Source of the DNA: an uncultured Rickettsiales bacterium
GTDB taxonomy: Bacteria > Pseudomonadota > Alphaproteobacteria > Rickettsiales > UBA1997
Assembly: GCA_944392135.1 (NCBI GenBank)
Contig: CALXVQ010000001.1
Coordinates: 100,931-164,930 of the forward strand
Reading direction: 5' to 3'
DNA length: 64,000 nt
Numbering within the stretch: position 1 is the first letter of the stretch; each line of letters starts with the position of its first letter. The notes under the pieces were generated by a model, which was given only the letters and a program-made list of their open reading frames with translations, was not told where the DNA came from and ran no database searches. Positions 10,952-54,175 of the stretch are shown in pieces. Position numbers and translations under genes: made by a program.

Positions 10952-10986
10952 GACTATCTTAATTTTTTTCTATTATTAAAGAATAA

Positions 10987-15318: not shown

Positions 15319-15343
15319 AATTTTTAATTTTCAATTTCTTATG

Positions 15344-31658: not shown

Positions 31659-32858
31659 TTAAAAGAATAAATCTTCTGTTTGTTCATTTAATCCAGTATC
31701 ATTTTGTATATTGTCTTGATTTTCTTGATTACTTGTATCTATAATTGGCATACCTTCTATTATTTGATTTTTATTAGGCAAATATGTTTGGTTTGGGCTT
31801 AATCTTACAAATAATTCTACATAATCATTATATATTTTATATTGATTTTCTTTGATTGTATTGTTTACACTTATTGATTGCCATTGTAAGTTTGTAATCT
31901 TCCAACCTAAAAGAACATACAAAGGGGAAATTTCAATGACATTAATATCATTATTATTGTTTGTTAAATTTGTGATTTTATTATTATTAACCCAAATAGA
32001 CCAAGCATCTTTTGATATATACATAATTGAATTTAAATATATAAAAAATGTTGTTGAATTATTATTTGCATTATCGTTAGCTATGCTACTTGTAGTATTA
32101 GTATTAAGATTAGCACCTATATACTGATCTGGAATACCAAGAGTTGAGGCTGGTAGTGCTTTGAATATATCTCTAATATTTTCTTCTGAGAACATTAAGG
32201 ATGTAAAAATTCTATTATTTTTCTTCTTTTTAGGTGTTTCATATGCATCTGTGGTATTTTGTGTTAGTGAATTATTAACTTTTTTGGAAGTAATATTCGA
32301 TTTAGGCTGGCTTGAAACTGTGTTTTGAATATTTTTATTGCCAGAATTATTTTGTGATGAAGTTTTATCTAAATCTGCTAATTTTTTAACATTGTTATCT
32401 GTTTTATTATTAGATGATGTTGTATTATTTTGTTCTAATGATTTTTCGTTGTTAGATAATGTAGAAGTATCTGTTTTTTGTTTTTTTGTATCATCAGTTT
32501 TTGAAGGATTTGTATTTTTATTTTCCGGTGTGTTTGTATTCTCAACTTCTGGAATGTTTGCATTCTCAACTTCTACTATATCTACATTTTCAACTTCTGG
32601 AAGGCTTGTATTTTCAACTTCTGATATATCTACACTTTCAACCTCTGGAAGATTTACACTTTCAAGTTCTGGAAGATTTTCAATATCGTTTGTAGGAAGT
32701 TCGTTGATATCATTAATTTCTTCTTCGTTTTTATTTAATTCTGGATCACTCATATCTATAACAGCACCCAAATCTGGAATATTTTGTGCATCACAAACAT
32801 TTGTTTGTATTACAAAATAAAATAAACAACTAAAAAATAAAGACAATTTTATTTTCAT
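31659..32858 (-). CDS. Secreted acidic-repeat protein with PilP/GspC-like C-terminal domain (tentative)
   Basis: A signal peptide is followed by degenerate (L/I)PEVE(N/S)(V/T) repeats and a long Asn/Ser/Thr-rich linker. The C-terminus FFIYLNSIMYISKDAWSIWVNNNKIT...INVIEISPLYVLLGW resembles the PilP/GspC-HR beta-domain pattern. Confidence 0.4.
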   Translation of the reverse strand: MKIKLSLFFSCLFYFVIQTNVCDAQNIPDLGAVIDMSDPELNKNEEEINDINELPTNDIENLPELESVNLPEVESVDISEVENTSLPEVENVDIVEVENANIPEVENTNTPENKNTNPSKTDDTKKQKTDTSTLSNNEKSLEQNNTTSSNNKTDNNVKKLADLDKTSSQNNSGNKNIQNTVSSQPKSNITSKKVNNSLTQNTTDAYETPKKKKNNRIFTSLMFSEENIRDIFKALPASTLGIPDQYIGANLNTNTTSSIANDNANNNSTTFFIYLNSIMYISKDAWSIWVNNNKITNLTNNNNDINVIEISPLYVLLGWKITNLQWQSISVNNTIKENQYKIYNDYVELFVRLSPNQTYLPNKNQIIEGMPIIDTSNQENQDNIQNDTGLNEQTEDLFF

Positions 32859-32860
32859 AA

Positions 32861-33517
32861 TTATACTCTCCCTTTACCTAAACCATATATTCTAACTTTT
32901 ATGTCGCCTTCAACATTTGTTACAGTATCACCTATACTTAATGCTTCTAACATTTCTGGATTAACTTTTCCAACTCTTTTTAAATTAATATCTTGAATTG
33001 TAATAAAATAACCAAGCTCATCTTTTAAATTATCTAAAAACATAAAAACATTAATATCGGTAATTGATGTAAATCTAATACTAACTAATGTTGTATAAAC
33101 TTGAACATTTTGTTTTGATAAATCCTTGCCAGCCAATACCACTGGAGAAAAATTGATTACTAAATTTTCTAACTTTGTTTCTCTTGCTAATTTTTCTATA
33201 ATTGTTTGTATTTCCTCTATATTTACACCCTTGAATTCTTTTTGTTTAGGTAAAAAATCTGTATTCCATATTTTCATGTAATCTTCTGCTATTTTAGATT
33301 TTTTTTCAACATTTTCTATTTCCGAAACCACAGAAGCATTTTCTATTCTTAAATCATCAATTCTAGTTAAAGTGTTTGATTTACTTTTAAAAATTACTTG
33401 TAAATTAACAACAAATACAACAAAAAGAACAAAACATATTATAGATACAACAACAACCTTAGTAAATAATTTACTAATCTTTTTTTCTTGTAAAACACTA
33501 TTTGATCCTTTACTCAT
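32861..33517 (-). CDS. Bitopic PilN/PilO/GspM-like assembly protein (tentative)
   Basis: Short cytoplasmic N-terminus, one TM (VVVVSIICFVLFVVFVVNL), a coiled-coil, then an ~110-aa alpha/beta domain. The start overlaps the upstream gene by 8 nt. Confidence 0.4.
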   Translation of the reverse strand: MSKGSNSVLQEKKISKLFTKVVVVSIICFVLFVVFVVNLQVIFKSKSNTLTRIDDLRIENASVVSEIENVEKKSKIAEDYMKIWNTDFLPKQKEFKGVNIEEIQTIIEKLARETKLENLVINFSPVVLAGKDLSKQNVQVYTTLVSIRFTSITDINVFMFLDNLKDELGYFITIQDINLKRVGKVNPEMLEALSIGDTVTNVEGDIKVRIYGLGKGRV

Positions 33518-35126
33518 ATATTACTCCATCTTCTAAATTATAATTACTATTATTATAATTATTTCTATTTTTATTATTAAGCATGTTGTCTATATATTTA
33601 TTTTGATTGTTATTTTTTAATGTTTGACCTCGTTCCACTATTTCAACTTTTATAGGATATGTTAAATATTTTTGACTAAAATTAATATTATTTGGTAAGG
33701 ATGTAATACCAGTCATTTGATCTTTAAAAGTATCTTTTAATTTTAAATTTACCATATCATATTTGTTAAATAATTTGCTAGCTGTACCTTCTGGATTAAT
33801 AATGCTAATATCATATAATGATTTTGCAGATTTGATGCCATTAGTATCTTGGTAATCAAAATCTTCTATATACCATCTTAAATTAAAAGTTAAAGCATTA
33901 CCATTTTGTGCTTTTGCAAATTTTTGAAAAGTATCTACTGGATTTATATATTTTGCATCTAATATATCTTTTAATAAACCAGCTTCAATAATTTGATTAA
34001 TTTCTTCAGAATTTACATCTATATTATTTTTTGTTTTTGTTTTGAGTATTTTGTTGTTTTTTTCTAATTCGCTCATTAATTCTTGTAGTGTGTTATTTGT
34101 GCTACTTGAGGTTATAATATTAAAAGCAAAAGAACCTACTATTGCTAAAATTAATACAAATATTAAACTCTTTACAGCCAATAAAGTTTTTGTGAGTGTA
34201 TTTGTTATATTAATTTTTTGATTACCAAATTTAATATTATGTTTATTTTGTAATGCAAACATTGATATTAATAAATCGGAATATTTTTCGTCTTTATTTA
34301 TATATCCAGCACCAACTTTTATTATTCTTGAAAGTTCTGATGGTGTATAATTCAAGAATAATGTTTTTTCCATTTTTAACTCTCTTAATGTTGTTTTGCT
34401 TTGTTGATCTAATACTGTGATAATTACTAATTTATCAAGATTAAAATCGGTATCAAATCTCTTAATATATTCACTTGTTCTTATAATATCTGTTTTTGTA
34501 AATTCAATTAAGTCTTCTTTTGTGGAATCAAAAGATATTAATCTAGTAAAAGCAATATGTCCATTGAATACAGCGACTTGTCTTAAATCACTTGCTCTAT
34601 TATTAAATAAAATTAATATCCAGCTATTTTTTTTGTTTAGTGTGTCTTTCATTCCATTAGTAATCATAACTTTTTTTGCAATTTCTTCTGCCTCTAATGG
34701 AACCATATAAATACCAATTAAATTATTTGGTACTATATTAAAAAAATTTAACCATTCTTTTAATGGAGAATCTGTGCTTGCAGACACAAATAAATAAACA
34801 CTTCTCTTATCTAATTTATTTTTATATAATAATTTTTTTTGTTTTAAATCATTTTTTGGTATTTCTGTAATAAATTTTCTATTAACCATATCTTGTAAGT
34901 CAAAATAACTTAAAGCAGGAAAAATTTTATAATTATAGTTTTGAGCTACTGTGTCGAGTAATATTATAGCATCAAGACCTTTATGTCTTTTAAAAAATTC
35001 AAGAACTTGTGGTAGTGTTTCTTGACTAAAAGTTTCTAAAAAAAATGTATCGAAAATTTTATTGCTACCTAATACAGATAAAATAGCTCCTTTATTTCCA
35101 ATATTTATAGTAATAACTTTTTTCAT
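33510..35126 (-). CDS. PilM-PilN fusion / GspL-like assembly-platform protein (tentative)
   Basis: The N-terminal ~300 aa has actin-like repeats (ITINIGNKGAILSVL; WILILFNNRASDLRQVAVFNGHIAFTRLI). One TM follows (LLAVKSLIFVLILAIVGSFAFNII), then a coiled-coil and a periplasmic domain. Confidence 0.45.
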   Translation of the reverse strand: MKKVITINIGNKGAILSVLGSNKIFDTFFLETFSQETLPQVLEFFKRHKGLDAIILLDTVAQNYNYKIFPALSYFDLQDMVNRKFITEIPKNDLKQKKLLYKNKLDKRSVYLFVSASTDSPLKEWLNFFNIVPNNLIGIYMVPLEAEEIAKKVMITNGMKDTLNKKNSWILILFNNRASDLRQVAVFNGHIAFTRLISFDSTKEDLIEFTKTDIIRTSEYIKRFDTDFNLDKLVIITVLDQQSKTTLRELKMEKTLFLNYTPSELSRIIKVGAGYINKDEKYSDLLISMFALQNKHNIKFGNQKINITNTLTKTLLAVKSLIFVLILAIVGSFAFNIITSSSTNNTLQELMSELEKNNKILKTKTKNNIDVNSEEINQIIEAGLLKDILDAKYINPVDTFQKFAKAQNGNALTFNLRWYIEDFDYQDTNGIKSAKSLYDISIINPEGTASKLFNKYDMVNLKLKDTFKDQMTGITSLPNNINFSQKYLTYPIKVEIVERGQTLKNNNQNKYIDNMLNNKNRNNYNNSNYNLEDGVIYE

Positions 35127-37084: not shown

Positions 37085-38151
37085 AAGTATTAGGTATAGA
37101 GAGTAGTTGTGATGAAACAGCAATAGCAATAGTTGATGATAATAAAAATATATTATCAAATGTTGTTGTTTCTCAAATAGATATACATAAAGAGTTTGGG
37201 GGTGTGGTTCCAGAAGTAGCTTCTAGAAATCATTTAGATATTATTGATAAAGCTGTTATAAAAGCATTAGCAGATGCTGAATTGAGTTTTCAAGACTTAG
37301 ATGCTATTTCTGCAACTTGTGGCCCAGGTTTAATGGGTGGCTTAATAGTTGGAGCAATTACAGCACAAACAATAGCAAATATTTATCAAAAACCTTTTGT
37401 TCCTGTAAATCATTTAGAAGGGCATATTTTGACGAATAGACTTACTCATAACCTTGAATTTCCATTTTTAATATTTTTAATTTCTGGGGGGCACTCACAA
37501 ATATTACTTGCAAAAAATGTTGGAGAGTATGAAAAAATTGGTGATACAATAGATGATAGTTTAGGAGAATGCTTTGATAAGGTAGCTCAAATGTTAGGTT
37601 TAGAATATCCAGGCGGGCCTAAAATAGAACAATTAGCAAAAGAAGGTGATGAAAATAAATTTAAGTTTGTAAAGCCTTTAATTGATGCGGTAGGGAAGGG
37701 CAGAAGTAAAGAAAATAATTTTAATTTTTCGTTTTCTGGTTTAAAAACAGCAGTTAGAAGAAAAATTGAAGAATTGACTGGCGAAACTTATGATTATGAT
37801 AATACATATAAAAAATTAAGTGAACAAGATAAAAAAGACATTTCAGCAAGTTTTCAAAAGACAATAGTGGATATTTTAAAAGACAGATTTAAAAATACTG
37901 CTAATTATTTAAAAGAAAATAATATTATATTAGATAAATTAATTTTTGCTGGCGGTGTTTCTGCCAATCAATACATAAAAAATAATATGGTAGAATTTTG
38001 TAAGAAATACAATTATGAAATTATAACTCCACCATTAAAATTATGTACTGATAATGGGGCAATGATAGCATGGGCAGGACTTGAAAAATTTAGATTAAAT
38101 AAATATGATAAAAGTGATATTTTAAATATTAAATCTAGATGGGAATTATAA
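37081..38151 (+). CDS. tsaD: tRNA N6-adenosine threonylcarbamoyltransferase
   Basis: LGIESSCDETA, VNHLEGH and SGGHSQ motifs. Confidence 0.95.
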   Translation: MKVLGIESSCDETAIAIVDDNKNILSNVVVSQIDIHKEFGGVVPEVASRNHLDIIDKAVIKALADAELSFQDLDAISATCGPGLMGGLIVGAITAQTIANIYQKPFVPVNHLEGHILTNRLTHNLEFPFLIFLISGGHSQILLAKNVGEYEKIGDTIDDSLGECFDKVAQMLGLEYPGGPKIEQLAKEGDENKFKFVKPLIDAVGKGRSKENNFNFSFSGLKTAVRRKIEELTGETYDYDNTYKKLSEQDKKDISASFQKTIVDILKDRFKNTANYLKENNIILDKLIFAGGVSANQYIKNNMVEFCKKYNYEIITPPLKLCTDNGAMIAWAGLEKFRLNKYDKSDILNIKSRWEL

Positions 38152-38877
38152 TTTTTTAATTCTTTCAATTTTTGTTAAATTTAGTGCATTATTTTTCTTA
38201 AATTCATTAAAATCTTTTAAAGACATACCTTCGGCAAGATAATAACCTAGATCTTGTAAAAAATATTCTTTATCTTGATAAAAATAAGGTTCTTTCGCAT
38301 TTATTTTATATGTAATCCTAATTTTGTAAAATGTGTCTTGCAGTGTGCCAAAATATAAAAAAGTTTTTATTTTTGTATTATTTTGTATATTCCAATATTC
38401 ATAAATTGTTTCATACATTTTTATATTTTTGCTATCTTGTGTTGTAAAAACAAGTATATTATTTTCTAATATTTTTGAATTACTATAATTTAATAATATA
38501 TATTGTTTTTCACTATTATAAGCTTGTCTAACTATATTACTATTAATATCATTAGGTATTTGAATTAAACCATTATGATATGCAAAAATATCTACCCAAT
38601 AACCACTTTTTATTTTATTATTTTTATATCTTTTTGAATAACCTAAACCATTTTTAATAATTTCAAAATCACTAATTTCATCATTTGATTCTAAATTTCC
38701 AAGATAATCAGGAAGTACAGAAATAAACATTGCCGAACTAGGATTAAAAATTCTATTTGGTTCTATTTCTTTTGAATACTCTTCTCTTGATAATAAATTA
38801 AAGAATATATCAGTATTTTTGTCATATTGTTTGCATGATATTAAGCAAAAAAATAAAATAATTATAATTTTCAACAT
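38146..38877 (-). CDS. Hypothetical lipoprotein (last gene of the virB8-virB9-parA string)
   Basis: The internal start MLKIIIILFFCLISC (lipobox) at 38877 leaves a 5-nt gap after the parA stop. The longer track ORF (to 38940) would overlap parA. Confidence 0.5.
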   Translation of the reverse strand: MLKIIIILFFCLISCKQYDKNTDIFFNLLSREEYSKEIEPNRIFNPSSAMFISVLPDYLGNLESNDEISDFEIIKNGLGYSKRYKNNKIKSGYWVDIFAYHNGLIQIPNDINSNIVRQAYNSEKQYILLNYSNSKILENNILVFTTQDSKNIKMYETIYEYWNIQNNTKIKTFLYFGTLQDTFYKIRITYKINAKEPYFYQDKEYFLQDLGYYLAEGMSLKDFNEFKKNNALNLTKIERIKKL

Positions 38878-38882
38878 ATGTA

Positions 38883-39662
38883 TTATATTCTTTTTACCAT
38901 TTCTTCTGCTAATTTCATATATGCAACAGAACCAGGACATGTTGAATCATATATGATTGCAGGAATACCATGAGAAGGTGATTCTGATAATTTTACATTT
39001 CTAGGAATAACTGTTTCATAAACCATTTCACCTAAACATTGTCTAACATCTTGTTCTACTTGCTCTGTGAGTTTATTTCTTTTATCATACATTGTTAAAA
39101 TAATACCATTTATTGTTAGTTCACTATTAAAATTATCTCTAACTCTTTCTGCTGTGTCTAATAAATGAGATAAACCTTCTAATGCAAAAAATTCGCATTG
39201 TAAAGGTATAATTATAGATGTAGATGCCACTAATGCATTAATCGTCAATAAACTCAAAGATGGGGGGCAATCTATAAAAATATAATCAAAATGTTCTTGA
39301 AGTTTAGATAATTGATTTTTTAATCTAAATTCTCTGTTATCTATTGTTGTTAGTTCAACTTCTGCACCAGCTAAATTTACAGTACAAGGAATTATATATA
39401 AATTTGGTATTTTTGTTTGATAGACTAAATCATTCACATCTCTATCTTCAATTAATAGATTATATATATCATGTTTCTCTCTGTCTTTTAAGCTAAGACC
39501 AATACCACTACTAGCATTACTTTGTGGATCAAAATCAATAATTAATACTTTTTTATTTAATGCAGAAAAAACAGTTGCAATATTAATTACAGTTGTTGTT
39601 TTTCCAACACCACCTTTTTGATTTACAACAGAAATAATTTTTGTTTTTATATTATTTTCCAT
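38883..39662 (-). CDS. parA: ParA/Soj chromosome-partitioning ATPase (no adjacent parB)
   Basis: Deviant Walker A NQKGGVGKTTT, DFDPQSNAS, and C-terminal IPRNVKLSESPSHGIPAIIYD, typical of chromosomal Soj. Confidence 0.9.
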   Translation of the reverse strand: MENNIKTKIISVVNQKGGVGKTTTVINIATVFSALNKKVLIIDFDPQSNASSGIGLSLKDREKHDIYNLLIEDRDVNDLVYQTKIPNLYIIPCTVNLAGAEVELTTIDNREFRLKNQLSKLQEHFDYIFIDCPPSLSLLTINALVASTSIIIPLQCEFFALEGLSHLLDTAERVRDNFNSELTINGIILTMYDKRNKLTEQVEQDVRQCLGEMVYETVIPRNVKLSESPSHGIPAIIYDSTCPGSVAYMKLAEEMVKRI

Positions 39663-39678
39663 TTACTAACCTTTAATT

Positions 39679-40446
39679 TTACATTATAGAATTATTAAAA
39701 ATACACAATAGTTCATTACCATTTCTTAAAGCAAATTGAATGCCAACAGTGCTAATAGCAACATAATCTCCATCTATATAATAGTTTACTGGTGTTTCAT
39801 TTCCATAAATATCAACCAAAGAAAAATCTGGTATAACTAAATTATTTCTAGGAAACTGAAAATATGTTGTCTTGCCATCATCAAATACTTTGATTGGTAT
39901 TATATTTTTTGCATCACCAGCCATTGTATAATTAAAATTAATGACATCACCTCTTTCTATATTAGTTAGAGCAAAACCATCTTGCACACTAATTGTATCT
40001 ATATTTACAGATGATGAATCTTTTTGTGGCATTTCTGGATTTTTAATTTCTTCATCTGGGTAGAAAAATCTAATAGAATAAACTAGATCTTCGCTAGTTC
40101 TTTCATCAAAAGCTAGACCTGTTATCTCAAATTGATATGTTCTTTTTGTGGTAATTACTGTCATATTTGTTGTAACATCTATTTGTATAGGTCTTATAAA
40201 TAATCTTTTTCCAATAGGTGTAATCTTCCATGGATATGCTTCACCTAATGATATTATTTCAATATCTTCATCTGGGGCAAATTCTATAAAAGATTGAAAA
40301 CCATAGTGAAATTTCAATTGAAAAACTTCATTAGGATTATATACAATTGTTCTAATTCTTGAATCTGTGGTTAAAGCAACTTCTTCTTCGGCAAGAGCTG
40401 TGAATGAAAATGTAATTAATAATAGAAATAATATTTTTTTAAACAT
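39679..40446 (-). CDS. virB9: T4SS protein VirB9 (TrbG/CagX family)
   Basis: Signal peptide; DSRIRTIVYNPNEVFQL, TNMTVITTKRTYQFEI, and a C-terminal domain VFDDGKTTYFQF...VNYYIDGDYVAI. Confidence 0.85.
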   Translation of the reverse strand: MFKKILFLLLITFSFTALAEEEVALTTDSRIRTIVYNPNEVFQLKFHYGFQSFIEFAPDEDIEIISLGEAYPWKITPIGKRLFIRPIQIDVTTNMTVITTKRTYQFEITGLAFDERTSEDLVYSIRFFYPDEEIKNPEMPQKDSSSVNIDTISVQDGFALTNIERGDVINFNYTMAGDAKNIIPIKVFDDGKTTYFQFPRNNLVIPDFSLVDIYGNETPVNYYIDGDYVAISTVGIQFALRNGNELLCIFNNSIM

Positions 40447-40448
40447 TT

Positions 40449-41123
40449 TTATTCCTCATATTTTATTGAAAGTTCTTGATCAGAAACAAATTTTGTAACT
40501 TGAAAGCCTAATGGGTTAATATATCTATCTGCTTGACTTAAAGTCAAATTAGCAAATCTAAATTCCATTTCAGCAATCATATCTCTATTATTGGCAAAAC
40601 CACTAACACTTCCAATATTTTTTAGTCTATATCTTATTGTTACACTGGTTGGCGTTTGAAAAATTAATGATTTTATAGCAACTTCTATTATACCTCGATT
40701 TCCAATTTTAGCAACTGGACTATTAGGGTTTCTAGGGTTTATTTTTGATTGTATTTGCCTAAAAACAGCTGGTGTTGAAAATAAAGATAATTTTTTATAA
40801 TCATCTCTAAAAGTTCCTGGATTATAACCTTCTGCAGCTGATAAAAAGGAATAAATAAAATATCTTTTTAAGCTAACATCGGCAGTAAAATGACTTTCAT
40901 TTAATTGTTCAACAACAGTTGGAATTCCACTTTTTTCTTCAATTTCAATAACATATGGAACTAATGATTTTGAAGCCATTATTTGTTTTACAAAAATAAC
41001 AGATATTAATACAGATGTAATAGCAAGAAATGATATAAAAAATAAAATATTTCTTTGAAAACTAACAATTTGATATTTACTAGAATACCAACTTTTTAAT
41101 TGTAATTTCTGTTCTTTTGCCAT
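40449..41123 (-). CDS. virB8: T4SS protein VirB8
   Basis: N-terminal cytoplasmic tail, one TM, then VPYVIEIEEKSGIPTVV and an NTF2-like periplasmic domain. A 2-nt gap separates it from virB9. Confidence 0.8.
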   Translation of the reverse strand: MAKEQKLQLKSWYSSKYQIVSFQRNILFFISFLAITSVLISVIFVKQIMASKSLVPYVIEIEEKSGIPTVVEQLNESHFTADVSLKRYFIYSFLSAAEGYNPGTFRDDYKKLSLFSTPAVFRQIQSKINPRNPNSPVAKIGNRGIIEVAIKSLIFQTPTSVTIRYRLKNIGSVSGFANNRDMIAEMEFRFANLTLSQADRYINPLGFQVTKFVSDQELSIKYEE

Positions 41124-41214
41124 TATTTTTTCATATAAACTAGTTTAATAATACTATATTAATATGCTTTTTTTTATTATCAAGAAAAGTTTATATTAAT
41201 ATAGTATATAATAA

Positions 41215-43755
41215 TTATTCAATATAATATTCAGCTTCGTAATTATCAGGATTATTATAACAAGAAATATCATTTTTACATTTTTCTTTATCTTTTATAT
41301 CTACCATACATTTTAATGATATTTGTTCCTTTAAGCCAGTTTGAGAATTCACTCTTGTTCCCTTAATTACACCTTCATTAGGTATTGTGTATTGTCCCAT
41401 ATTATAACCTTTCTCACTAAGCTGCCATGTAACATCTTTGAAATTTTTTAATTCCGATGCCTTTTTACATCTTGGCAATATAATACATTTACTTGTTACT
41501 GTATTAATATCTGTTGGTACATAATCTTCCCACTTATACAACCATTGTTTTCCTCTGCCACATTCGTTAATTGCTACATCAGAATTACCTACTGCAAGAT
41601 TTGTTGAAAATAAAGCATAGTCTAATGGTTCAGCTGTTGGATTGTTTACTACACTTAAACCATTACAAGTTTCTATTGAAGATACTTTTTCTCCATATTT
41701 TGTTTTAGGAAAAGTTAAAGTATATGTATAAGTTTTTTTAATTGTTGTTTCTCCATCAACATTAATATATATAATTCTAGCCTTTCCTTCTCCATCTCTT
41801 ATAGATATACTTGGAAAACCACTTGCTGGTCCAACTTGATATGTTTTAGGACTAGTACAACCAACTCCTGAGAAAGTTTTGGTTAATTGTTTTTTACTGT
41901 CTCGATTATTATATTTAAGTGTTATACTGCAATTAATTCCATTTATACCACCAGATTTACCTGGGCCAATGTTAGAAGTTAATGCTTTTCTACTTTTTAT
42001 GATGCTAGTATTAATATAACCAGAGCCGCCACCACCAGATCCGCAACCTCTGTATTTATTACCATAAGTATTACAGGAGTAACCATCGTGTACTTTTCCA
42101 ATAGTTCCAAAGCCGCTACAATAGCTTCCGCCTCCACCATACCAACCACCACCACCTTGCATTACTGATTTTCCAAAGCTAGCAGTAGTTTTACAAACCC
42201 CTTTTTTACTAGTATCTCCATTTTTTGCGCCGGCAGATGCGAAAACATTTGTAGAACAATATTTTTTTCCACTCTTTTTATATTCGGAATAGCCTCCTAA
42301 ACCTTTTCCACCTCTATTATTTCCACCACCACCATAGCCACCATTTTCTGGGACTTTTGTTCCAAAACAAGTAACGGCTCTATGAGATGCTCCACCACCT
42401 CCACCAGCAACAATAAATCTATTTTTTAAACCCGTGCTATTATTCCAATTACCACCAACAGTTCTAACATCGGTAGCGCCACCACCGGCACCATCATTAT
42501 TTTTACTACCTCCAGCAGCACCGCCACCGCCATTCCAACCACCACCTTTACCACCTGCAACCTTAGTACCACCTCTATTGCCAACATAAATATATATTGT
42601 TCTATTTTTTACACCAATTCTTTTTAAATTCTCATCTGTTGTATCTAAATAACCAAAACTATAACCGCCTCCACCACCTTTTGAATTATCTGCATGTCCA
42701 CCTCTTGCTCCCCATACTTCAATAGATATTTCTTTTACATCGCTAGGAATTTTGAAAGGTTGTACTTTTCCTGTATAATTAAAAATTACTTGTTGTCCTG
42801 TTTTTGATGGGGCTATATTATCATCAGTTGTCGATGATGAACCTGTATCACCATCACTTTCGATACCACCATTTATTTTTTCAGTTAAAGTAAAGGTATA
42901 TGTATATTGCATTTCTTCACAATCATCTTCACCTGGATCGGGTTGTGTATTTGATGATAAATCTGTACCATAAAAATTTATTGAATTATCTAATTTTTTA
43001 TGATGATAAAGATATTTTGTATTGTCTTTATTTAATTTAAAATTATTTATTGGTAAGTTTTCTGCTTCCATTTGATTGGTTTTAAATTTATTACTTTTTT
43101 GACTATCATAAGGAAAAGCACCTGGTGTATTTAGATTAAATGACATTAATAAAAATATTTCACCATCACCTAAATATTTTTCTAATTTTACATTTTCCGC
43201 ATTATTTTCTAAAAAAGCTTGTTTCTGAGATGTAATCTTTTTTAATGCATCATTTTCTGTTAATTCTTGCGGAATCATATACACTATTTTATTTCCCCAG
43301 GCATCAACTAGATAATTATTTGATAAACCCAATGAAGCTGTTGGAACTGTGCCATATAAAATAGTTTCTTTATTCTCATTCACTGTTTCAAAAACACCTT
43401 TTCCATCTACAATACAAGTAGAGTTTAAATCTGGATTGTCATCAAATGATAATGAATAAGTTCCTCTTTTTTCAACTCCCATTTTATCTTTTGGACTTGT
43501 ACAGCCTTTTGTATCACAATTTAATGGGGCAGGGCAAGGAAATTTACCATATTTAGCAAGATATTTTGTTAAAGCTGTATCTATTTCTTGAAATTTTCTT
43601 GTGGTAGCAAAAGTTCTTTTATTAATATTTTCCATATCATATAAACCAATAACAGCTGTCATTATGGCACCCATTATAAGTATAATCATAGATATTATAA
43701 CTAGATTAAAACCATATGTATTGTTTATTCTTTTTACTGTCATCTCATTTACCAT
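41215..43755 (-). CDS. Giant prepilin-like protein with glycine-rich (ALK/LTK GRD-like, PF12810-type) domain
   Basis: The N-terminus MTVKRINNTYG|FNLVIISMIILIMGAIMTAVIGL followed by TRKFQEIDTALTKYLAKYGKFPCP is pseudopilin-like, but without Glu at +5. The central region has GARGGHADNSKGGGGGYS, VAGGKGGGWNGGGGAAGG, DGAGGGATDVR, IVAGGGGGAS and GCGSGGGGSGYIN. The protein is Cys-rich, and the start may be the Met at 43743. Confidence 0.6.
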   Translation of the reverse strand: MVNEMTVKRINNTYGFNLVIISMIILIMGAIMTAVIGLYDMENINKRTFATTRKFQEIDTALTKYLAKYGKFPCPAPLNCDTKGCTSPKDKMGVEKRGTYSLSFDDNPDLNSTCIVDGKGVFETVNENKETILYGTVPTASLGLSNNYLVDAWGNKIVYMIPQELTENDALKKITSQKQAFLENNAENVKLEKYLGDGEIFLLMSFNLNTPGAFPYDSQKSNKFKTNQMEAENLPINNFKLNKDNTKYLYHHKKLDNSINFYGTDLSSNTQPDPGEDDCEEMQYTYTFTLTEKINGGIESDGDTGSSSTTDDNIAPSKTGQQVIFNYTGKVQPFKIPSDVKEISIEVWGARGGHADNSKGGGGGYSFGYLDTTDENLKRIGVKNRTIYIYVGNRGGTKVAGGKGGGWNGGGGAAGGSKNNDGAGGGATDVRTVGGNWNNSTGLKNRFIVAGGGGGASHRAVTCFGTKVPENGGYGGGGNNRGGKGLGGYSEYKKSGKKYCSTNVFASAGAKNGDTSKKGVCKTTASFGKSVMQGGGGWYGGGGSYCSGFGTIGKVHDGYSCNTYGNKYRGCGSGGGGSGYINTSIIKSRKALTSNIGPGKSGGINGINCSITLKYNNRDSKKQLTKTFSGVGCTSPKTYQVGPASGFPSISIRDGEGKARIIYINVDGETTIKKTYTYTLTFPKTKYGEKVSSIETCNGLSVVNNPTAEPLDYALFSTNLAVGNSDVAINECGRGKQWLYKWEDYVPTDINTVTSKCIILPRCKKASELKNFKDVTWQLSEKGYNMGQYTIPNEGVIKGTRVNSQTGLKEQISLKCMVDIKDKEKCKNDISCYNNPDNYEAEYYIE

Positions 43756-43877
43756 AAAAATTACAGTTTACTACATTATATATTTTTATTGTAAAAAAGT
43801 CAAGGATAATCGTTTTTTATAGATTTTTAAAAAAGATAATATAATATAAAAATATATTAATTAAATTATATTTTACA

Positions 43878-44903
43878 ATGATTAAAAAGTTAGCAGTTGT
43901 TGGTGCAACAGGCATAAATAGTTTAGAATTTTTTTCAATTTTAGCAGAAAGAAAAATAAAAATAGAGGAAATTGTAGCTTTAAGTGCAAATGAAGAAGAA
44001 TATGGAAAAGAAATTAGCTATGGTTATGACGAAAGATTAAAAGTAAAAGCATTACAAGATTATGATTTTCATGGTACAGATGTGGCTGTTTTTATAACCG
44101 GAGTAGGTATAGCAGAAGTTTATACAAAAAAAGCATTGGAAAGTAATTGTATAGTTATTGATTCTAGTTCTTATTGGAGAAATGATAAAGATGTTCCTTT
44201 GATTGTTCCAGAGTTAAATAGTAGTGAAATTTTAAACTATAAAAACAAAAATATTATTTCATTACCTAGTGCTTCTGCTTTGCAATTAGCAATGGTACTT
44301 AAACCATTAACAATTTTAGCTGATATAAAAAGAGTGGTAGTTTCTACATATCAAGCTGTTTCAAGTAAAGGGCAAGATGCTATGGATGAATTATTTGAAC
44401 AAACAAAAAAGATTTATGAAAACGATTTTATGAAACCTATTTTATTTAAAAAAGAAATGCCATTTAATTTAATACCACAAGTTGGTGAATATTCACTTAA
44501 TGAAAACTATGAAGAAGAAAATTTTATAATTGATGAAACAAATAAAATTCTTAATACAAATATAAAAATTACATCAACATGTGTGCAAGTTCCAGTTTTT
44601 GCTTGTTATTCTCAATCTATCAATATAGAATTTAATGAAAAAATTGATATTGAAGATGCAAAAGAAGTTTTATCTGATGCTGATGGTATTTTAATTTTAG
44701 ATAAACCAGAAGAGTATGTTTTTGCAACACCTAGGGATTGTGCTGGTACAGAAGAAGTTTATGTTTCTAGAATTAGAAAAGATTTATCTCTTGAAAATGG
44801 TATAAATTTATGGTCGGTAGCTGATAATGTTAGAGTTGGTAAAGCATTAAATTTAGTTAATACATTGCAAGAATTAGATAAAAAATTATCTATTAAGAAA
44901 TAG
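43878..44903 (+). CDS. Aspartate-semialdehyde dehydrogenase homologue lacking the catalytic Cys/His
   Basis: Collinear with alphaproteobacterial/Gram-positive-type Asd (AVVGATG, VPLIVPELN, RVVVSTYQAVS, DAMDELF). The active-site motif NPNCST reads LPSASA, and the His of VPV..GHSES reads VPVFACYSQS. Confidence 0.75.
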   Translation: MIKKLAVVGATGINSLEFFSILAERKIKIEEIVALSANEEEYGKEISYGYDERLKVKALQDYDFHGTDVAVFITGVGIAEVYTKKALESNCIVIDSSSYWRNDKDVPLIVPELNSSEILNYKNKNIISLPSASALQLAMVLKPLTILADIKRVVVSTYQAVSSKGQDAMDELFEQTKKIYENDFMKPILFKKEMPFNLIPQVGEYSLNENYEEENFIIDETNKILNTNIKITSTCVQVPVFACYSQSINIEFNEKIDIEDAKEVLSDADGILILDKPEEYVFATPRDCAGTEEVYVSRIRKDLSLENGINLWSVADNVRVGKALNLVNTLQELDKKLSIKK

Positions 44904-45707
44904 GGTAAATAACTTTTTCTTATCACCCTTATTCTGTAAGAATAATTTTATTTCGGTATAATATGGCTCACCTAATGACTTTAATAAAAAGTCATTGTGT
45001 GCCATAATTTCAAAAGCATTAATATTATTATTTACAAATGCTAATGCAAATAATTCAACAGCATCTTTTTGTATTAATTTATTTATTAAATTATTTTGAT
45101 TAATTAAATATTCTAAAACATCATCATTATTGTAAGATATAAAATAAATCAAATAAGCCTTTATATCTCTATTATTAAAATTATCAAGAAAATCATTAAC
45201 CAATAATTGTATTAATTCATCTTTTTTGTGTTGAAATAATAAAAGCATAGTAGGAGCAATAACCTGTTTAGATAATGAATGTCTTAAAGATTTTGTTTTT
45301 ATAAAAAATTCCATTAAATCAATATTTTTTCTATTTAAAATAATAGAATATATAGTAGGAGTATCTCTAAAATAATATTCAACAAAGTCAAAATATTGAG
45401 TATAAAGTTTTATAATTGCATCATTTTTAGAATTATATAAAGAATATAAAATAATATTATACCCTTCTTCATTTACTAACTTATGCAATAAAATTTTATC
45501 TAAATTTAGTATATTTTTTATTGTGTTATAATCTTCATTATTAAGTGCTTTAAATAGTAATTTTGATAATTTAATATATTCTTCTTCAATATCACTTCTA
45601 ATTCTTGCTAAATCTCTTTTTTTACTAGGTTCTTCTAGATTTAGCTTTTTTATTTTTTTATATATTTTATTTATTTCACTATCTTTAAAAACACTTAATA
45701 ATGACAT
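44886..45707 (-). CDS. Hypothetical helical-repeat protein (possibly degenerate ankyrin-like)
   Basis: 273-aa ORF with repeated ~30-aa helical units (…NEEGYNIILYSLYNSKNDAIIKLY…). No firm family call. Confidence 0.35.
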   Translation of the reverse strand: MSLLSVFKDSEINKIYKKIKKLNLEEPSKKRDLARIRSDIEEEYIKLSKLLFKALNNEDYNTIKNILNLDKILLHKLVNEEGYNIILYSLYNSKNDAIIKLYTQYFDFVEYYFRDTPTIYSIILNRKNIDLMEFFIKTKSLRHSLSKQVIAPTMLLLFQHKKDELIQLLVNDFLDNFNNRDIKAYLIYFISYNNDDVLEYLINQNNLINKLIQKDAVELFALAFVNNNINAFEIMAHNDFLLKSLGEPYYTEIKLFLQNKGDKKKLFTLFLNR

Positions 45708-48933: not shown

Positions 48934-50421
48934 TTATTTAACATTTTTTGTTTCAATTCTAAGGCTTTTGCCTAAACAATAAAATATTTCTTCCTTAGAA
49001 TAATTTGTATTTTCTTCAAAAAGTTCAACTGGATAATCTTTATTAAAAATAATAACTTTATTTTCAATGTCAATATTATTATAATCATCATCAGTTAATT
49101 TTACAACAATTTGATCCATTGAAATTTTACCATATATTTGACATTTTGTATATTCGCCATCATTTTTTTGAATAAATACATAACATTTCTTTTTGCTAAC
49201 TATTGAAGATAAACCATCTAAATAACCACCAAAGAATGTAGCAAGCTTATCTCCTTTTTTTACAGAAACTAAACCATCATAGCCAACAATACCATCTTCA
49301 TCAACAATTCTTTTTTCTGTAATTTGTGAATAAAATGCTTTATATTTATTTTCAGCATTTTTTTCATAAACAGCTTTATATTTTGATTCACTAATCATTT
49401 CTTTATTTCTAGGTAAATTGCAAACAAAATTTTCTGGATCTAAATAACAATTTTCTAAAAATCTTCCAATAGATTCCATAGAAGCTATTTCTAAATTATC
49501 CAAAAAAGTTTTTAAACTTAAAGATTCACCTAAAACAACAACTTCTTTGTCTATTAAGGTTTTATCTTGTGTATCTAATATAATTTTATCATTTTGTACT
49601 AATTTAATAAATATTTTTACACCATTATATAATACATAACAATCACCATTTCCATATTGACTAAACACGCCATTATTAATACCAAATGGTAAATATAAAT
49701 TAGTACCATCAGTTCTAATATAAGATTTTATGGATATCACATCTTTAAAACCATCAAAATAACCATATAATATTTTTCCTGGACGACAAGTATTACAAAA
49801 ATCAGACAAATCAAAATTTACTATACTATCACTAGCTTCTATACCTTTTAAAATTTCTTTTTCAGGAAAATACTTTGCAACTTTTCTAAAATTATTTATT
49901 TGTCTTTCATTAGCTTCGTGTTGCACATTATCAGCACATGCAAGATGACTCATAATCATTAAAACATTAAAATCATTTTCATCTATATATTTTCTAACTT
50001 TTGCTGTGTCAGAAACTTCAAAACCATTTCTATTTAAACCCGTATTAAATTGTAAAACAATATCTTTAATATTAGCATTTTTTGATAATTCTAACTGCCT
50101 AAAATCATTAATAACTGGTGTTAGTGAATATTTTTTAAATATTTCTTCATCGCCTTTAAATAAGCTATTTAAAACAAAAATTCTCTCCAATTCTGGAAAC
50201 ATTTTTCTAAGTTCAATACCTTCTTTTAATGCAAATACAAAAAATTTTTTTTGTGGTTCTTTGATTGATAATAGTGTTTTAACAACATTATAAACACCTA
50301 CATTATATGCATTAGCTTTAACAACAGGAATAACATTATCACCTTGTCCTGTGATTTCTCTAACTTTTTCAAAATTATATATTAAGTTATCTAAATTTAT
50401 TTCTATTTTTGCTTTTTTCAT
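48934..50421 (-). CDS. alr: Alanine racemase with ~130-aa internal extra segment
   Basis: The PLP-Lys motif VVKANAYNVG and N-terminal barrel are present. The C-terminal beta-domain (IVGYDG...GGYLDGL...GKISMDQIVV) sits at aa ~365-495, preceded by a degenerate second copy of the same domain. Confidence 0.8.
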   Translation of the reverse strand: MKKAKIEINLDNLIYNFEKVREITGQGDNVIPVVKANAYNVGVYNVVKTLLSIKEPQKKFFVFALKEGIELRKMFPELERIFVLNSLFKGDEEIFKKYSLTPVINDFRQLELSKNANIKDIVLQFNTGLNRNGFEVSDTAKVRKYIDENDFNVLMIMSHLACADNVQHEANERQINNFRKVAKYFPEKEILKGIEASDSIVNFDLSDFCNTCRPGKILYGYFDGFKDVISIKSYIRTDGTNLYLPFGINNGVFSQYGNGDCYVLYNGVKIFIKLVQNDKIILDTQDKTLIDKEVVVLGESLSLKTFLDNLEIASMESIGRFLENCYLDPENFVCNLPRNKEMISESKYKAVYEKNAENKYKAFYSQITEKRIVDEDGIVGYDGLVSVKKGDKLATFFGGYLDGLSSIVSKKKCYVFIQKNDGEYTKCQIYGKISMDQIVVKLTDDDYNNIDIENKVIIFNKDYPVELFEENTNYSKEEIFYCLGKSLRIETKNVK

Positions 50422-50977: not shown

Positions 50978-53900
50978 ATGGCACAGGTTGAAAATTATAA
51001 CCATAAATTAGTTGAAAAGAAATGGCAAAAATTTTGGGATAAAAATAATACATTTTATTTCGATCCTAATGATAAAAAAGAAAAATTTTATATGCTTCCT
51101 ATGTTTTTATATCCTTCTGGTGAAATGCATTTAGGACATTTAAGAAATTTTTCTATTAGTGATGTAATAGCTAGATTTAAAAGACTTCAAGGTTATAATG
51201 TTCTTCATCCAACTGGTGCTGATGCTTTTGGACTTCCTGCTGAAAATGCTGCAATCAAAAGACATATACACCCTAGTGAATGGACTTATAAAAATTTAGA
51301 AAAAATTATGAATTCCATGTATGCTTGTGGCTTGTCTTTTGACAAAAGTAGAGTTTTTGCCACTTGCGACCCTGAATATTATGGTTTTCAACAAAAAATA
51401 TTTATAGATTTATACAAACATGGTTTGGCTTTTCAAAAAGAAAGTTATGTAAATTGGGATCCTGTGGATCAAACTGTTTTGGCAAATGAACAAGTTATTG
51501 ATGGTAGAGGTTGGAGAAGTGATGCCTTAGTTGAAAAGAAAAAATTGAAACAATGGTTCTTAAAAATCACAGATTATGCTGATAAATTATTAGAAAGTAT
51601 TAAAAATGGCGATTTGGCTGGCTGGCCTGAAAAAGTTAGATTAATGCAAGAAAATTGGATTGGCAAAAGTCAAGGAGCTATACTTCGTTTTTATATAGAT
51701 AAAAATGATACTCTTCCTGCCTCCCTTTGTAATGATGAAAGTTGCAAAAATAATTATCTCCATGCCTCCCTTTGTAAGGGGGGAAGTTGCGAAAATAATT
51801 CTCTCCATGCCTCCCTTTGTAAGGGGGGAAGTTGCGAAGCAACAGGGGGGTTGAGCTTAAAAAAATATATTCCATATAATAAAGATTTAGTTAAAAAAGC
51901 CAAAGAACTCAGAAAAAATCAAACACCATTAGAAAAAAAATTCTGGTATGATGTTCTATATAATAAAAGTTTTAAAAATTTAAAATGGACGAGACAAAAA
52001 CCAATAGATAATTATATTGTAGATTTTTTCTGTGATGAACTTATGTTAGCTATTGAACTTGATGGAGATACTCATTCAAATCAAGTAAAATATGATATAG
52101 AAAGAACAAATAATTTAAATAAATTGGGTATTGAAGTAATTAGATATAATAACAAAGATATATATAACAATATTGAAGGAGTTTATTTGGATTTGGAAGA
52201 AAAAGTAAATAAAAGAAAAATAGACTTAAATTCTCAACCCCCCGCTGACTTCGTCAGCACCCCCCTTACAAAGGGAGGCAAGAGTGTGGCTGATTTTGCC
52301 AACACAACTCCTACAAATGGAGACAATAGTGGACTTGATTTTATAGAAGTTTATACAACTAGACCTGATACATTATATGGAGCAAGTTTTATTGGTATTT
52401 CTGCTAATCATCCATTGGCCGAAGAACTTGCAAAAACTAATAAAGATATAGCAAAATTTATTGAAGAATGCAAAACAACTCCAATAGATGAAGAAAGTTT
52501 AGAAACTATGGAGAAAAAAGGTATTGATACAGGTATTTTTGTAGAGCATCCATTTGATAAAAATTGGAAACTTCCTGTATGGATTGCAAACTTTATTTTG
52601 ATGGACTATGGAACAGGGGCTATTTTTGCTTGTCCGGCACACGATCAAAGAGATTATGAATTTGCTAAAAAATATAACTTGCCGATTAAAGTTGTTGTTA
52701 GCCCCGATGGAAAAGATTTTGAATTAAATAATGAAGCATATGAAGAAGAAGGTATTGCTATTAATTCTAATTTCTTAAATGGACTTACTACAAAAGAAGC
52801 TAAACAAAAAGCTATTGAAAAAATTGAAGAAATGGGAATTGGTAAAGCAAAAACTAATTATAGATTGAGAGATTGGGGAGTTTCTAGACAAAGATATTGG
52901 GGCTGTCCTATTCCTATGGTATATTGTGAAGATTGTGGTGTAGTGCCAGAAAAAGAAGAAAACTTGCCAATTAAATTGCCAGAAGATGTTGTATTTGATG
53001 GTAAAGGAAACCCATTGGCTAACCACCCAACATGGAAATATACAACTTGTCCTAAATGTGGTAAACCAGCTATTAGAGAAACTGATACTATGGATACATT
53101 TGTTGATTCTTCATGGTATTTTATGAGATTTGTTGATTTAGATAAAAACAACCCAATTAATAAAGATTTATGTAATAAAATTCTCCCAATAGATCAATAT
53201 GTTGGTGGTATAGAACATGCTACAATGCATTTAATGTATTCAAGATTTTTTACAAAAGCATTAGCTGACATAGGGTATTTTGATAAATCAATTAAAGAAC
53301 CGGCAAAAAGATTATTTAATCAAGGTATGGTATGTCATAAAGCTTACAGAAATAAGAAAAAAGAATGGTGTTACCCTTGGAATGTTAAAGAAGAAAATGG
53401 AAAATATTTTGATATAAATACAGGTGAAGAATTGACTTGTGAAGGTGTTATCAAAATGAGTAAATCAAAATGCAATGTCGTTGACATTAATACAATTATT
53501 GAAGATTATGGAGCAGATGCTGCGAGATTATTTGTATTATCTGACACACCTGCTGATAAAGATTTTGAATGGACGACAGAAGGCATTGAAGGTGCTTGGA
53601 AATATATAAATAGAGTATGGAAATTAGGGGCAACTTTTGCAGAAGAAAATGATTTAGATAAATTAAAAAATATTAAAGTTAATAAAACTAATGCTTTATT
53701 AATTGAAAATCATAAAGCCGTAAAAGCTGTTAGTTCTTTCCTTGAAAATTTAGAATTTAATAAAGCTATTGCTAGATTGAGAGAATTTTCTAATGCTATT
53801 GAAAAATTTGCTCCACAAGATGATGAAGATAAAGTTATTAAATATCAATGTATTGTGAATTTAATAAAAATGCTTGCTCCATTTACTCCACATCTTTGTG

Positions 53901-54175
53901 AAGAATTAAATTCTTTATTAAAACAAACTCCTACACTTGATATTGCTTCGTGGCCTACATATGATGAAAAATTGACTATTGATACAGAAATTACAATAGC
54001 TATTCAAGTTAATGGAAAATTAAGAGGTGATATAAAAGTTGAAAAAGATTTAGATAGAACAAAAGTTGAAGAATTAGCTAAAAATCAAGAAAATGTTAAA
54101 AAACATCTTGAAGGAAAAGAAATCAAAAAAGTTATAGTTGTTCCTAATAAATTAGTTAACTTTGTTGTAGCTTAA
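50978..54175 (+). CDS. leuS: Leucyl-tRNA synthetase carrying an in-frame ~207-codon insertion
   Basis: HLGH (HIGH) and KMSKS motifs and the CP1 editing motif [12 protein letters not shown] are present, with full collinearity to bacterial LeuRS apart from aa ~246-452. Confidence 0.95.
   Translation: [1065 protein letters not shown]
51712..52333 (+). mobile_element. DUF559 (Vsr-like endonuclease) cassette flanked by structured inverted repeats, in-frame within leuS
   Basis: The 47-nt inverted repeats at 51809-51855 and 52233-52279 share identical arms. The left arm is tandemly triplicated (45-bp period from 51712). The core encodes [26 protein letters not shown]...[21 protein letters not shown]...[11 protein letters not shown]. 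Confidence 0.75.

Follow-up and report, generated by a model that had tools for sequence, protein, structure and literature searches.

The subject of this work is an 846-aa protein encoded on the minus strand (positions 41215 to 43755) of a 64-kb stretch of contig CALXVQ010000001.1 (assembly GCA_944392135.1), hereafter referred to as the window, from an uncultured Rickettsiales bacterium. This protein combines an N-terminal module related to type IV pilins with a glycine-rich domain (GRD) of the ALK/LTK type and a Cys-rich C-terminal module, and it can be compared with several described systems. GspK, the tip minor pseudopilin of the type II secretion system (T2SS), is reportedly the largest of the pseudopilin subunits and carries a class III signal without the Glu residue at position 5 of the mature chain (Glu5). 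GspK occupies the filament tip, a position with no overlying subunit with which Glu5 could pair. The 846-aa protein similarly lacks Glu5, and its in-register similarity to the N-terminal halves of GspG and GspH (see below) fits this parallel. However, the α-domain of GspK is inserted in the pilin β-sheet, whereas the extra modules of the 846-aa protein are appended C-terminally, and GspK is encoded in a gsp operon. The 846-aa protein has no match to the T2SSK family (PF03934).

The thin pilus of the IncI1 plasmid R64 is a type IVb pilus that is encoded together with a type IV secretion system (T4SS)/conjugation system, has a complete machinery of its own (including the PilQ ATPase, the PilU peptidase, and the PilN secretin), and has the C termini of its PilV subunit varied by a shufflon. 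With PilV, the 846-aa protein would share the nature of a minor type IV pilin, a variable C-terminal adhesin, and a genetic link to a T4SS. Nevertheless, PilV varies by site-specific inversion and has no GRD, and neither such machinery nor a shufflon was seen at the locus described here. In vertebrates, the GRD occurs in the receptors ALK and LTK, where its ligands are ALKAL cytokines and where an EGF-like module, a transmembrane helix, and a kinase come after it. The glycine-rich part of the 846-aa protein resembles the extracellular GRDs of these receptors in both sequence and predicted structure, but it hangs from a pilin-like module, and its relatives carry 1 to 5 tandem copies. A further parallel is with phage GRD proteins, such as the Bxb1 tail tip, cyanophage fibers, and minor tail proteins, which display this fold on the distal, receptor-facing part of an appendage; unlike the 846-aa protein, which would be attached via a pilin helix, these are viral structural proteins attached by tail-fiber N-terminal domains.

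The closest parallel in domain organization is with the modular type IV pilins, exemplified by the Streptococcus sanguinis proteins PilB (pilin plus the von Willebrand factor A [vWA] domain) and PilC (pilin plus lectin), both predicted to be exposed at the pilus tip; an InterPro survey listed more than 1,200 modular pilins with 264 different architectures (Raynaud et al. 2021, PMC8179133). As in these proteins, the N-terminal pilin-like module of the 846-aa protein is followed by a linker and a binding module that is not specific for pili. In contrast to them, the 846-aa protein lacks Glu5, fails the IPR012902-type hidden Markov models (HMMs), and bears an additional Cys-rich module; its source is a Rickettsiales-like symbiont, diderm and AT-rich, in which the pilus machinery was not found (see below for the scope of this search).

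The initial annotation of this gene, made from the sequence of the window, presented the fusion of a pilin with a GRD as apparently undescribed. In fact, Dataset S1 of the survey mentioned above includes the IPR012902-PF12810 architecture twice and the IPR012902-PF12810x3 architecture once, in addition to a PF12810-bearing PilY1 (Raynaud et al. 2021, PMC8179133). Among the best 120 of the 238 database relatives of the 846-aa protein, 11 combine PF07963 and PF12810. Furthermore, a run of seven consecutive PF12810 genes in an unrelated gut bacterium (L103, positions 49 to 11526), at least two of which carry a weak N_methyl motif, is a predicted GRD-pilin gene array. The pilin-GRD fusion is already catalogued, though uncharacterized. 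The 846-aa protein stands out in having lost both Glu5 and the HMM signature, in its additional Cys-rich module, in its occurrence in Rickettsiales with several fast-evolving paralogs, and in its local T4SS neighborhood.

Domain architecture

The gene is a single open reading frame (ORF) with an ATG start in a very AT-rich window (GC content of 17 to 32% per 2-kb bin). The N terminus initially quoted, MTVKRINNTYG|FNLVIISMIILIMGAIMTAVIGL, is preceded in the ORF by four extra residues, MVNE, and all the motifs on which the initial annotation relied (FNLVIISMIILIMGAIMTAVIGL, FQEIDTALTKYLAKYGKFPCP, WGARGGHADNSKGGGGGYSFG, IYVGNRGG, GGKGGGWNGGGGAAGG, DGAGGGATDVR, RFIVAGGGGGAS, and GCGSGGGGSGYINTS) were found in its translation. 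The leader peptide, residues 1 to 15 (MVNEMTVKRINNTYG; positions 43711 to 43755, minus strand, as for all parts of this gene), has a hydrophilic, basic character, with the invariant Gly(-1) as its last residue. It is followed by the α1-N hydrophobic segment, residues 16 to 38 (FNLVIISMIILIMGAIMTAVIGL; 43642 to 43710), with Gly14 and with Ile instead of Glu5, and by a pilin- or pseudopilin-like globular head, residues 39 to 255 (42991 to 43641), delineated by its sequence motifs, the conserved Cys74, Cys80, Cys85, and Cys114, and an AlphaFold2 (AF2) model. The Asp/Ser/Thr-rich linker, residues 256 to 328 (42772 to 42990), is variable and was modeled with low confidence (predicted local distance difference test [pLDDT] below 50 over residues 257 to 328); its identity to the close relatives is 25 to 37%, and 22% of its columns vary among alleles. 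The ALK/LTK-type GRD, assigned by Pfam (PF12810) and Foldseek, comprises residues 329 to 662 (41770 to 42771), and the Cys-rich C-terminal module, with five family-invariant Cys residues, comprises residues 663 to 846 (41218 to 41769).

In Pfam, PF12810 was the sole match for the whole protein, and the NCBIfam search returned nothing. The 64-kb window encodes no paralogs of this protein. A whole-protein phmmer search against PDB produced only low-complexity noise from Gly linkers and was discarded. There are 20 Cys residues in the protein, ten of them invariant in the family, which argues for an extracytoplasmic protein.

The N-terminal pilin module

Sequence comparisons show homology of residues 1 to 255 with bona fide prepilins, with retention of the cleavage-site Gly, Phe at +1, the ~21-residue α1-N segment with Gly14, and the α-β head, and with Glu5 replaced by a hydrophobic residue. 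A phmmer search with residues 1 to 260 against 1.84 billion representative sequences retrieved 2,477 proteins at E values of ≤1e-3, mostly prepilins with Glu5, which was present, as G|F(S/T)L(I/L/V)E..., in 103 of the 135 top matches with a recognizable N-terminal motif. The TIGR02532 cutoff was passed by 9 of the 10 such Glu5 prepilin relatives that were tested. When the profile of the family N-terminal domain was compared by hhalign with 24 Glu5 prepilins (phmmer E values of 1e-11 to 1e-17), the two aligned in register over 144 columns with a probability of 100% and an E value of 3.8e-38, so that the +5 column of the family faced the Glu5 of the prepilins. Both profiles contain the motifs Y..NG.LPCPA and G.VP...LGL...Y..D.WGNK..Y. 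The pilin head of the 846-aa protein carries Y..KYGKFPCPAPL and YGxVPxxSLGLxNNYxxDAWGNKxVY.

The prepilin-like character that was initially ascribed to the N terminus is therefore upheld by its homology to Glu5 prepilins, whereas the standard prepilin models, PF07963 and TIGR02532, were not passed; with these HMMs negative, homology had to be established through the profile-profile comparison. The lack of Glu at +5, which was also part of the initial annotation, is evident: this residue is Ile in the 846-aa protein and I, F, T, M, or L across all family members. Searches with other models gave concordant, if marginal, results. The GspG model TIGR01710 matched 5 of 5 family N termini in register (query residues 15 to 74 to profile positions 2 to 61) with E values of 0.03 to 5e-5, all far below the cutoff, the GspH matches being likewise subthreshold. 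In a search of PDB with the family profile, Geobacter PilA-N was matched in register with an E value of 0.004. Direct HMM and profile evidence for the pilin module is weak but consistent; the indirect evidence, via the Glu5-containing relatives, is decisive.

In the alignment of 18 family members, Gly at -1 and Phe or Tyr at +1 are invariant in all 12 intact N termini; one truncated fragment outside this alignment (P0252) has Ala at the former position. The leaders preceding this site vary across the family in both length and sequence. A hypervariable leader followed by invariant Gly-1 and Phe/Tyr+1 is the pattern that would be expected for a peptidase site. Leaders of class III signals are typically 6 to 26 residues long, and the leader of the 846-aa protein (MVNEMTVKRINNTYG|F) has 11 to 15 residues. 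In the AF2 model of the N-terminal domain, a 52-residue α1 helix (residues 18 to 69) is followed by a five-strand β-sheet, with pLDDT values of 80 to 91 in the core; this topology is in keeping with the α-β "lollipop" of solved pilins.

Glycine-rich domain and C-terminal module

The assignment of the central region to the ALK/LTK-like GRD family in the initial annotation was confirmed by both sequence and structure comparisons. Pfam model PF12810 (ALK_LTK_GRD) matches residues 345 to 662 with 47.3 bits (gathering cutoff, 24.5 bits; E value, 3.4e-12), covering profile positions 12 to 241 of 243, and this model matches 18 of 18 family members, with the best E value of 1.7e-27. Gly accounts for 25% of residues 329 to 662. 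The AF2 model of residues 321 to 846 (pLDDT, 76.5) retrieved the ALK/LTK GRD structures in PDB (entries 7N00, 7LRZ, 7NWZ, and 7NX1; a TNF-like β-sandwich plus a polyglycine-II lattice) with a Foldseek probability of 1.0 and E values of 7e-8 to 2e-6; the TM-scores of these superpositions are 0.2 to 0.4, with root mean square deviations of >10 Å and sequence identity of 14 to 19%. The same PDB search matched the GRD model to the mycobacteriophage Bxb1 tail tip (9D93_Qb) with an E value of 2e-4, and a search of the BFVD viral structures gave 103 matches at E values of ≤1e-3, many of them to phage virion, tail-fiber, or minor-tail proteins. The ALK/LTK, Bxb1, and viral matches mark the GRD as a module that recurs in the distal parts of recognition appendages. 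A literature search on the function of bacterial GRDs was essentially empty, with the PF12810 match concerning a fungus.

The C-terminal region is indeed Cys-rich, as initially noted, with 7 of the 20 Cys residues falling within the last 184 residues. This module is predicted to be all-β, and Foldseek matched it to β2-glycoprotein I, with probabilities of 0.5 to 0.75 and E values of 0.2 to 0.6. Its identification as a sushi/complement control protein (CCP) domain (PF00084) was considered and rejected, as there was no Pfam match at E values of ≤1 and no PDB match for the family profile; in the predicted model, the module may faintly resemble CCP/sushi repeats, a resemblance that lacks sequence-level support. 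Comparison by hhalign of the C-terminal module with the Cys-rich tail of a pilin from a distant metagenome-assembled genome (MAG; locus L005) gave a probability of 23%.

Family distribution and sequence divergence

Approximately 30 of the 238 relatives in the protein database represent the full-length family, with sizes of 600 to 1,400 residues; all of these are metagenomic, and there is no named protein among them. A scan of species-representative genomes identified 11 loci, ten in MAGs labeled uncultured Rickettsiales and one in a MAG labeled Rhizobiaceae, with up to four paralogs per MAG. Six contigs, the longest of 217 kb, carry the exact protein of the window. The layout is the same across the family: the leader varies, the hydrophobic helix that follows is conserved, and so is the next domain, which has ~220 residues and four invariant Cys; a variable linker then leads to one or more GRDs and to a conserved Cys-rich C-terminal module of ~150 to 180 residues. 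The number of GRDs ranges from 1 to 5, the latter number being found in the 1,621-residue relative in locus L005.

Sequence divergence was analyzed by comparing the window with the loci of the two closest relatives, L012 and L013. The products of asd, map, pgsA, argS, alr, and leuS are 95 to 99% identical to their counterparts in these loci. For asd, map, argS, and alr, the ratios of nonsynonymous to synonymous substitution rates (dN/dS, by the NG86 method) are 0.03 to 0.13, with dS values of 0.17 to 0.31, and pgsA has a dS of 0 (positions 38146 to 45707 versus L012). VirB8 and VirB9 are 87% identical (dN/dS, 0.09 to 0.10; dS, 0.70 to 0.83), ParA is 84% identical (dN/dS, 0.12; dS, 0.82), and the product of an ankyrin-like ORF is 70% identical (dN/dS, 0.28; dS, 0.62). 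With identity of only 48 to 59%, a dN/dS of 0.44 over 437 alignable codons, and a dS of 0.67, the gene for the 846-aa protein is the fastest-evolving one of its neighborhood, and, besides it, only the ankyrin-like ORF has a raised dN/dS. The divergence is unevenly distributed among the domains: identity to L012/L013 is 67 to 69% in the pilin module, 50 to 59% in the GRD, 45 to 48% at the C terminus, and 25 to 37% in the linker. Among 14 alleles of ≥90% identity, 123 of 849 columns differ, and the differences form mosaic blocks.

Such rapid, mosaic change is the behavior of an exposed protein under host or immune pressure. Together with the variation in the GRD copy number, the existence of paralogs, and the elevated dN/dS, it fits a protein that is exposed at the surface, faces the host, and experiences diversifying pressure. 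As a separate observation, the dS values are raised (0.62 to 0.83) across parA, virB9, virB8, the gene for the 846-aa protein, and the ankyrin-like ORF (positions 38146 to 45707 versus L012), but not in asd, which is located inside this stretch. The raised dS from the ankyrin-like ORF to parA suggests recombination or a separate history of these genes.

Canonical prepilins in the window and related genomes

The window also encodes a canonical Glu5 prepilin (NNIFA|FSLIELSIVLIIIGLLVAG; positions 16195 to 16881, plus strand, with the ORF starting at 16006 and the codon for the mature Phe1 at 16234). This protein has Ala, not Gly, at -1, and its annotated leader is unusually long. The respective family comprises 1,186 homologs in the database, many of them annotated with PF07963, and its paralogs are found in tandem in related genomes (L017 and L021). 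The presence of this gene indicates that the organism makes class III signal-peptide proteins. Genes for type IV pili and T2SS have been reported to be widespread in basal Rickettsiales and scattered among crown Rickettsiales (Castelli et al. 2024, PMC10847448).

The gene preceding the canonical prepilin codes for the VirB2/TrbC pilin of the T4SS (positions 14941 to 15264, plus strand; Pfam TrbC, E value of 1.2e-13). The spacer between these two genes (15340 to 15900) contains at least 5 copies of an imperfect palindrome of ~35 to 50 nt with the core GATTGCCACGAACCTTCGGTTCTCGCAATGAC. Another such core is located at position 22502; none are expected by chance. In L003, several translated matches to this element adjoin the prepilin gene of that locus. 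The element looks like a mobile palindromic repeat of the repetitive extragenic palindromic (REP) or Rickettsia palindromic element (RPE) type.

In the distant Rickettsiales MAG locus L005 (positions 3299 to 12071), the gene for the 1,621-aa family member with five GRDs is found together with a helix-turn-helix (HTH) gene, virB2, and two genes for Glu5 prepilins. These prepilins are homologous to the N-terminal domain of the 846-aa protein, and one of them has a Cys-rich tail of its own.

Genomic neighborhood

In agreement with the initial annotation, the gene for the 846-aa protein is located 91 nt upstream of virB8 (gap 41124 to 41214), and the genes for VirB8 of the rvh-type T4SS (positions 40449 to 41123; PF04335, E value of 1.9e-37), VirB9 (39679 to 40446; TIGR02781, 220.9 bits versus the cutoff of 217.7), and a ParA/Soj-type ATPase (38883 to 39662; Pfam) follow on the same minus strand. 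No terminator-like site was detected in a scan of the 91-nt gap. A promoter-like site, TTGACT-17-TATAAT (11 of 12 positions), is located at 43775 to 43803 on the minus strand, ~20 nt before the ATG; the region shows no enrichment of such sites over shuffled sequences (25 versus 22.7), so this one is only suggestive. Upstream is the divergently transcribed asd gene, and the rest of the window consists of ordinary chromosomal housekeeping genes.

The same gene order, with asd divergent from the GRD gene and the latter followed by virB8, virB9, and parA, is found in L012 and L013. Given that the housekeeping proteins of these loci are 95 to 99% identical to those in the window, the shared order of virB8 and virB9 says little. 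Family members in no fewer than 10 further genomic contexts have no virB8 or virB9 gene within 10 kb and adjoin unrelated housekeeping genes, such as His_Phos_1, Obg, rpsD, Ham1/sulfatase, and others. The functional tie to virB8-virB9 that was suggested by adjacency thus finds no support beyond two very close relatives, and the 846-aa protein resembles no VirB family in either Pfam or NCBIfam. The most likely reason for its place next to virB8-virB9 is local synteny that was inherited, not membership in a functional operon. There are two pilin-T4SS adjacencies in the 64-kb window, with a third one in the distant MAG locus L005; as a rough estimate, two such adjacencies in a single small genome would be somewhat above chance.

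Predicted function and alternative explanations

The initial annotation proposed a role in adhesion at the filament tip or in interaction with the host, and the most economical reading is, indeed, that of a tip or minor-pilin adhesin. The favored scenario (probability of about 0.55) is that the 846-aa protein is processed by a prepilin peptidase and becomes a minor subunit, probably at the tip, with the GRD and the Cys-rich module presented as adhesins. The protein would be inserted into the inner membrane via its α1-N segment and cleaved by the prepilin peptidase after Gly15. In prepilin processing, Gly-1 is critical and Glu5 dispensable, and Glu5 mutants do not homopolymerize but can coassemble with wild-type subunits (Berry & Pelicic, PMC4471445), so a Glu5-less pilin is expected to be a minor subunit. 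Because it lacks Glu5, the 846-aa protein would be unable to form homopolymers and would join, as a low-abundance and probably tip-located subunit, a filament composed of canonical Glu5 pilins, for instance the one whose gene lies at ~16.2 kb of the window. The flexible linker would hold both the GRD and the Cys-rich module at a distance from the filament, where they would serve as ligand-binding adhesins directed at the cell, host or prey, with which this Rickettsiales-like symbiont is associated.

Several observations weigh against this scenario, in which we infer cleavage, filament incorporation, and ligand binding alike. None of the 18 family members matched PF07963 at E values of ≤5, and TIGR02532 was not matched by the 846-aa protein even at lenient thresholds, with a single relative scoring 13.6 bits versus the cutoff of 16.3. 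Several relatives have annotated leaders of 40 to 90 residues, although these could be explained by miscalled start codons. The AF2 model of the N-terminal domain is of moderate confidence (pLDDT, 65.6), and its Foldseek comparison with PDB gave no significant matches, with CofA and S. sanguinis PilA as the best-scoring pilins at E values of ~4, which leaves the topology of the model as the evidence for the fold. The machinery for making a filament was sought by Pfam searches with 61 ORFs of the window and by scanning the loci for the Walker-A (GxTGSGK[ST]T) and PilD (GxGDxK) motifs. The prepilin peptidase, assembly ATPase, platform protein, and secretin were not found in the 64-kb window, in the 10 kb beyond each of its ends, in 353 kb of related Rickettsiales loci, in 587 kb around 78 homologous metagenomic pilin genes, or in the examined contexts of pilin paralogs. 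These searches covered less than ~10% of the genome and are not evidence of absence. Nonetheless, the missing machinery, the failed PF07963 and TIGR02532 models, the loss of Glu5 throughout the family, and the lack of a significant Foldseek match to pilins would all be consistent with the main rival explanation, in which the degenerate pilin N terminus serves as an uncleaved type II signal anchor, with the GRD and the Cys-rich module residing in the periplasm and no filament being formed. We consider this explanation rather unlikely. A mere anchor would not need strict conservation of Gly-1 and Phe/Tyr+1 at the point where the hypervariable leader gives way to the conserved helix; conservation and homology to Glu5 prepilins extend beyond the helix to the entire pilin head; canonical prepilins with Glu5 are still encoded in this genome; and the fast mosaic evolution, as well as the similarity of the GRD to phage tail-fiber proteins, points to exposure.

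Surface display could also proceed via the class III signal but independently of a filament, as in the archaeal bindosome or in a short pseudopilus-like structure, with the protein being processed by the peptidase without capping a long pilus. This explanation relies on the same class III-like signature as tip display and has a precedent in the class III-signal substrate-binding proteins, whose surface localization requires a type IV filament (Tff) system while no filaments are visible (Berry & Pelicic, PMC4471445). It would also agree with the numerous pilin-like genes of this lineage being scattered away from machinery operons. However, the precedent is archaeal, no machinery of any kind has been identified, and the data do not separate this option from tip display, which makes it an improbable, albeit coherent, alternative. 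It is just as doubtful that the 846-aa protein is a component or an accessory adhesin of the rvh T4SS, cotranscribed with virB8-virB9 and taking over the surface or adhesin role of VirB5; to our knowledge, rvh systems have no VirB5. The common strand, the short gap without a terminator-like site, and the arrangement retained in two relatives speak for such a role, as do the proximity of the canonical prepilin to virB2 across the repeat-filled spacer, the location of virB2 in L005 between the five-GRD member and two Glu5 pilins, and the dS values of 0.67 to 0.83 from the GRD gene to virB8, virB9, and parA versus 0.17 to 0.31 for asd, map, argS, and alr. On the other hand, the syntenic relatives come from nearly identical genomes, which makes the conservation uninformative, the at least 10 other contexts contain no virB gene within 10 kb, the protein has no similarity to VirB proteins, and we know of no T4SS substrates or pilins that use class III signals. 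A broader version of this idea, that type IV pilin-like proteins of this Rickettsiales lineage have been recruited to the rvh T4SS rather than to a classical pilus, is a long shot; if so, the adhesin or extracellular-appendage role that is missing from the VirB5-less rvh systems would fall to the 846-aa protein and to the canonical prepilin with virB2 as its neighbor. Compatible with this idea are the two pilin-T4SS adjacencies in the window and the third in L005, the raised dS of the block, and the failure to find dedicated pilus machinery in the regions searched.

With minor-pilin tip display as the preferred reading, the 846-aa protein is a candidate host-contact adhesin in a gut-associated Rickettsiales lineage that retains class III signal-peptide proteins. 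Hardly any work has addressed the function of ALK/LTK GRD relatives in bacteria and phages. A pilin-borne GRD with several fast-evolving paralogs in a host-associated bacterium supports the view of GRDs as general extracellular recognition modules, and this family should be tractable for binding and structural studies of these domains. Its practical value is modest, given an architecture already present in the databases, an uncultured organism, and a weak T4SS link.

Other features of the window and related contigs

An operon of three genes on the minus strand (positions 31659 to 35126) encodes proteins without Pfam or PDB matches: a 538-aa protein, a 218-aa bitopic protein, and a 399-aa secreted protein that includes an acidic repeat region. 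The largest of the three consists of a cytoplasmic N-terminal domain, one transmembrane helix near residue 320, and a periplasmic C-terminal domain; it has 41 homologs, and both of those that are informatively named come from Rickettsiales MAGs. The topology is reminiscent of GspL/M/C or PilMN/O/P, but the idea that these proteins are divergent versions of such components is no more than a lead, as there is no named homolog and homology is unsupported.

A 264-aa ORF (positions 38146 to 38940, minus strand) shares 58 nt with the 3' end of parA and has no family match; a lipoprotein-like start (MLKIIIILFFCLISC) is found at an internal Met. The leucyl-tRNA synthetase (positions 50978 to 54175, plus strand) is a 1,065-aa protein with a DUF559 (Vsr-like endonuclease) domain inserted at residues 304 to 408, and its gene call is split in one relative (L106). 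The 495-aa alanine racemase (48934 to 50421, minus strand) contains ~140 extra residues between its Pfam domains at residues 8 to 221 and 363 to 487. At positions 7164 to 10951 (plus strand), a major facilitator superfamily (MFS) transporter gene is flanked by nearly duplicate GT2 glycosyltransferase genes, whose products of 424 and 419 aa have almost identical Pfam coordinates. Rfam detected the Rickettsia sRNA47 at positions 24687 to 24816 (minus strand; 65.9 bits versus the gathering score of 60), antisense within the gene for an S41 peptidase (ctpA); this match may reflect conserved coding sequence alone.

The flanks of the window and its sister contigs (L021, L105, and L106) encode desulfoferrodoxin, flavodoxins, and nitroreductases, a set of genes that points to an anaerobic lifestyle. 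The same regions carry a zeta-toxin gene that adjoins the gene for a 499-aa ankyrin-repeat protein, as well as capsid genes of the gene transfer agent (GTA) or phage type.

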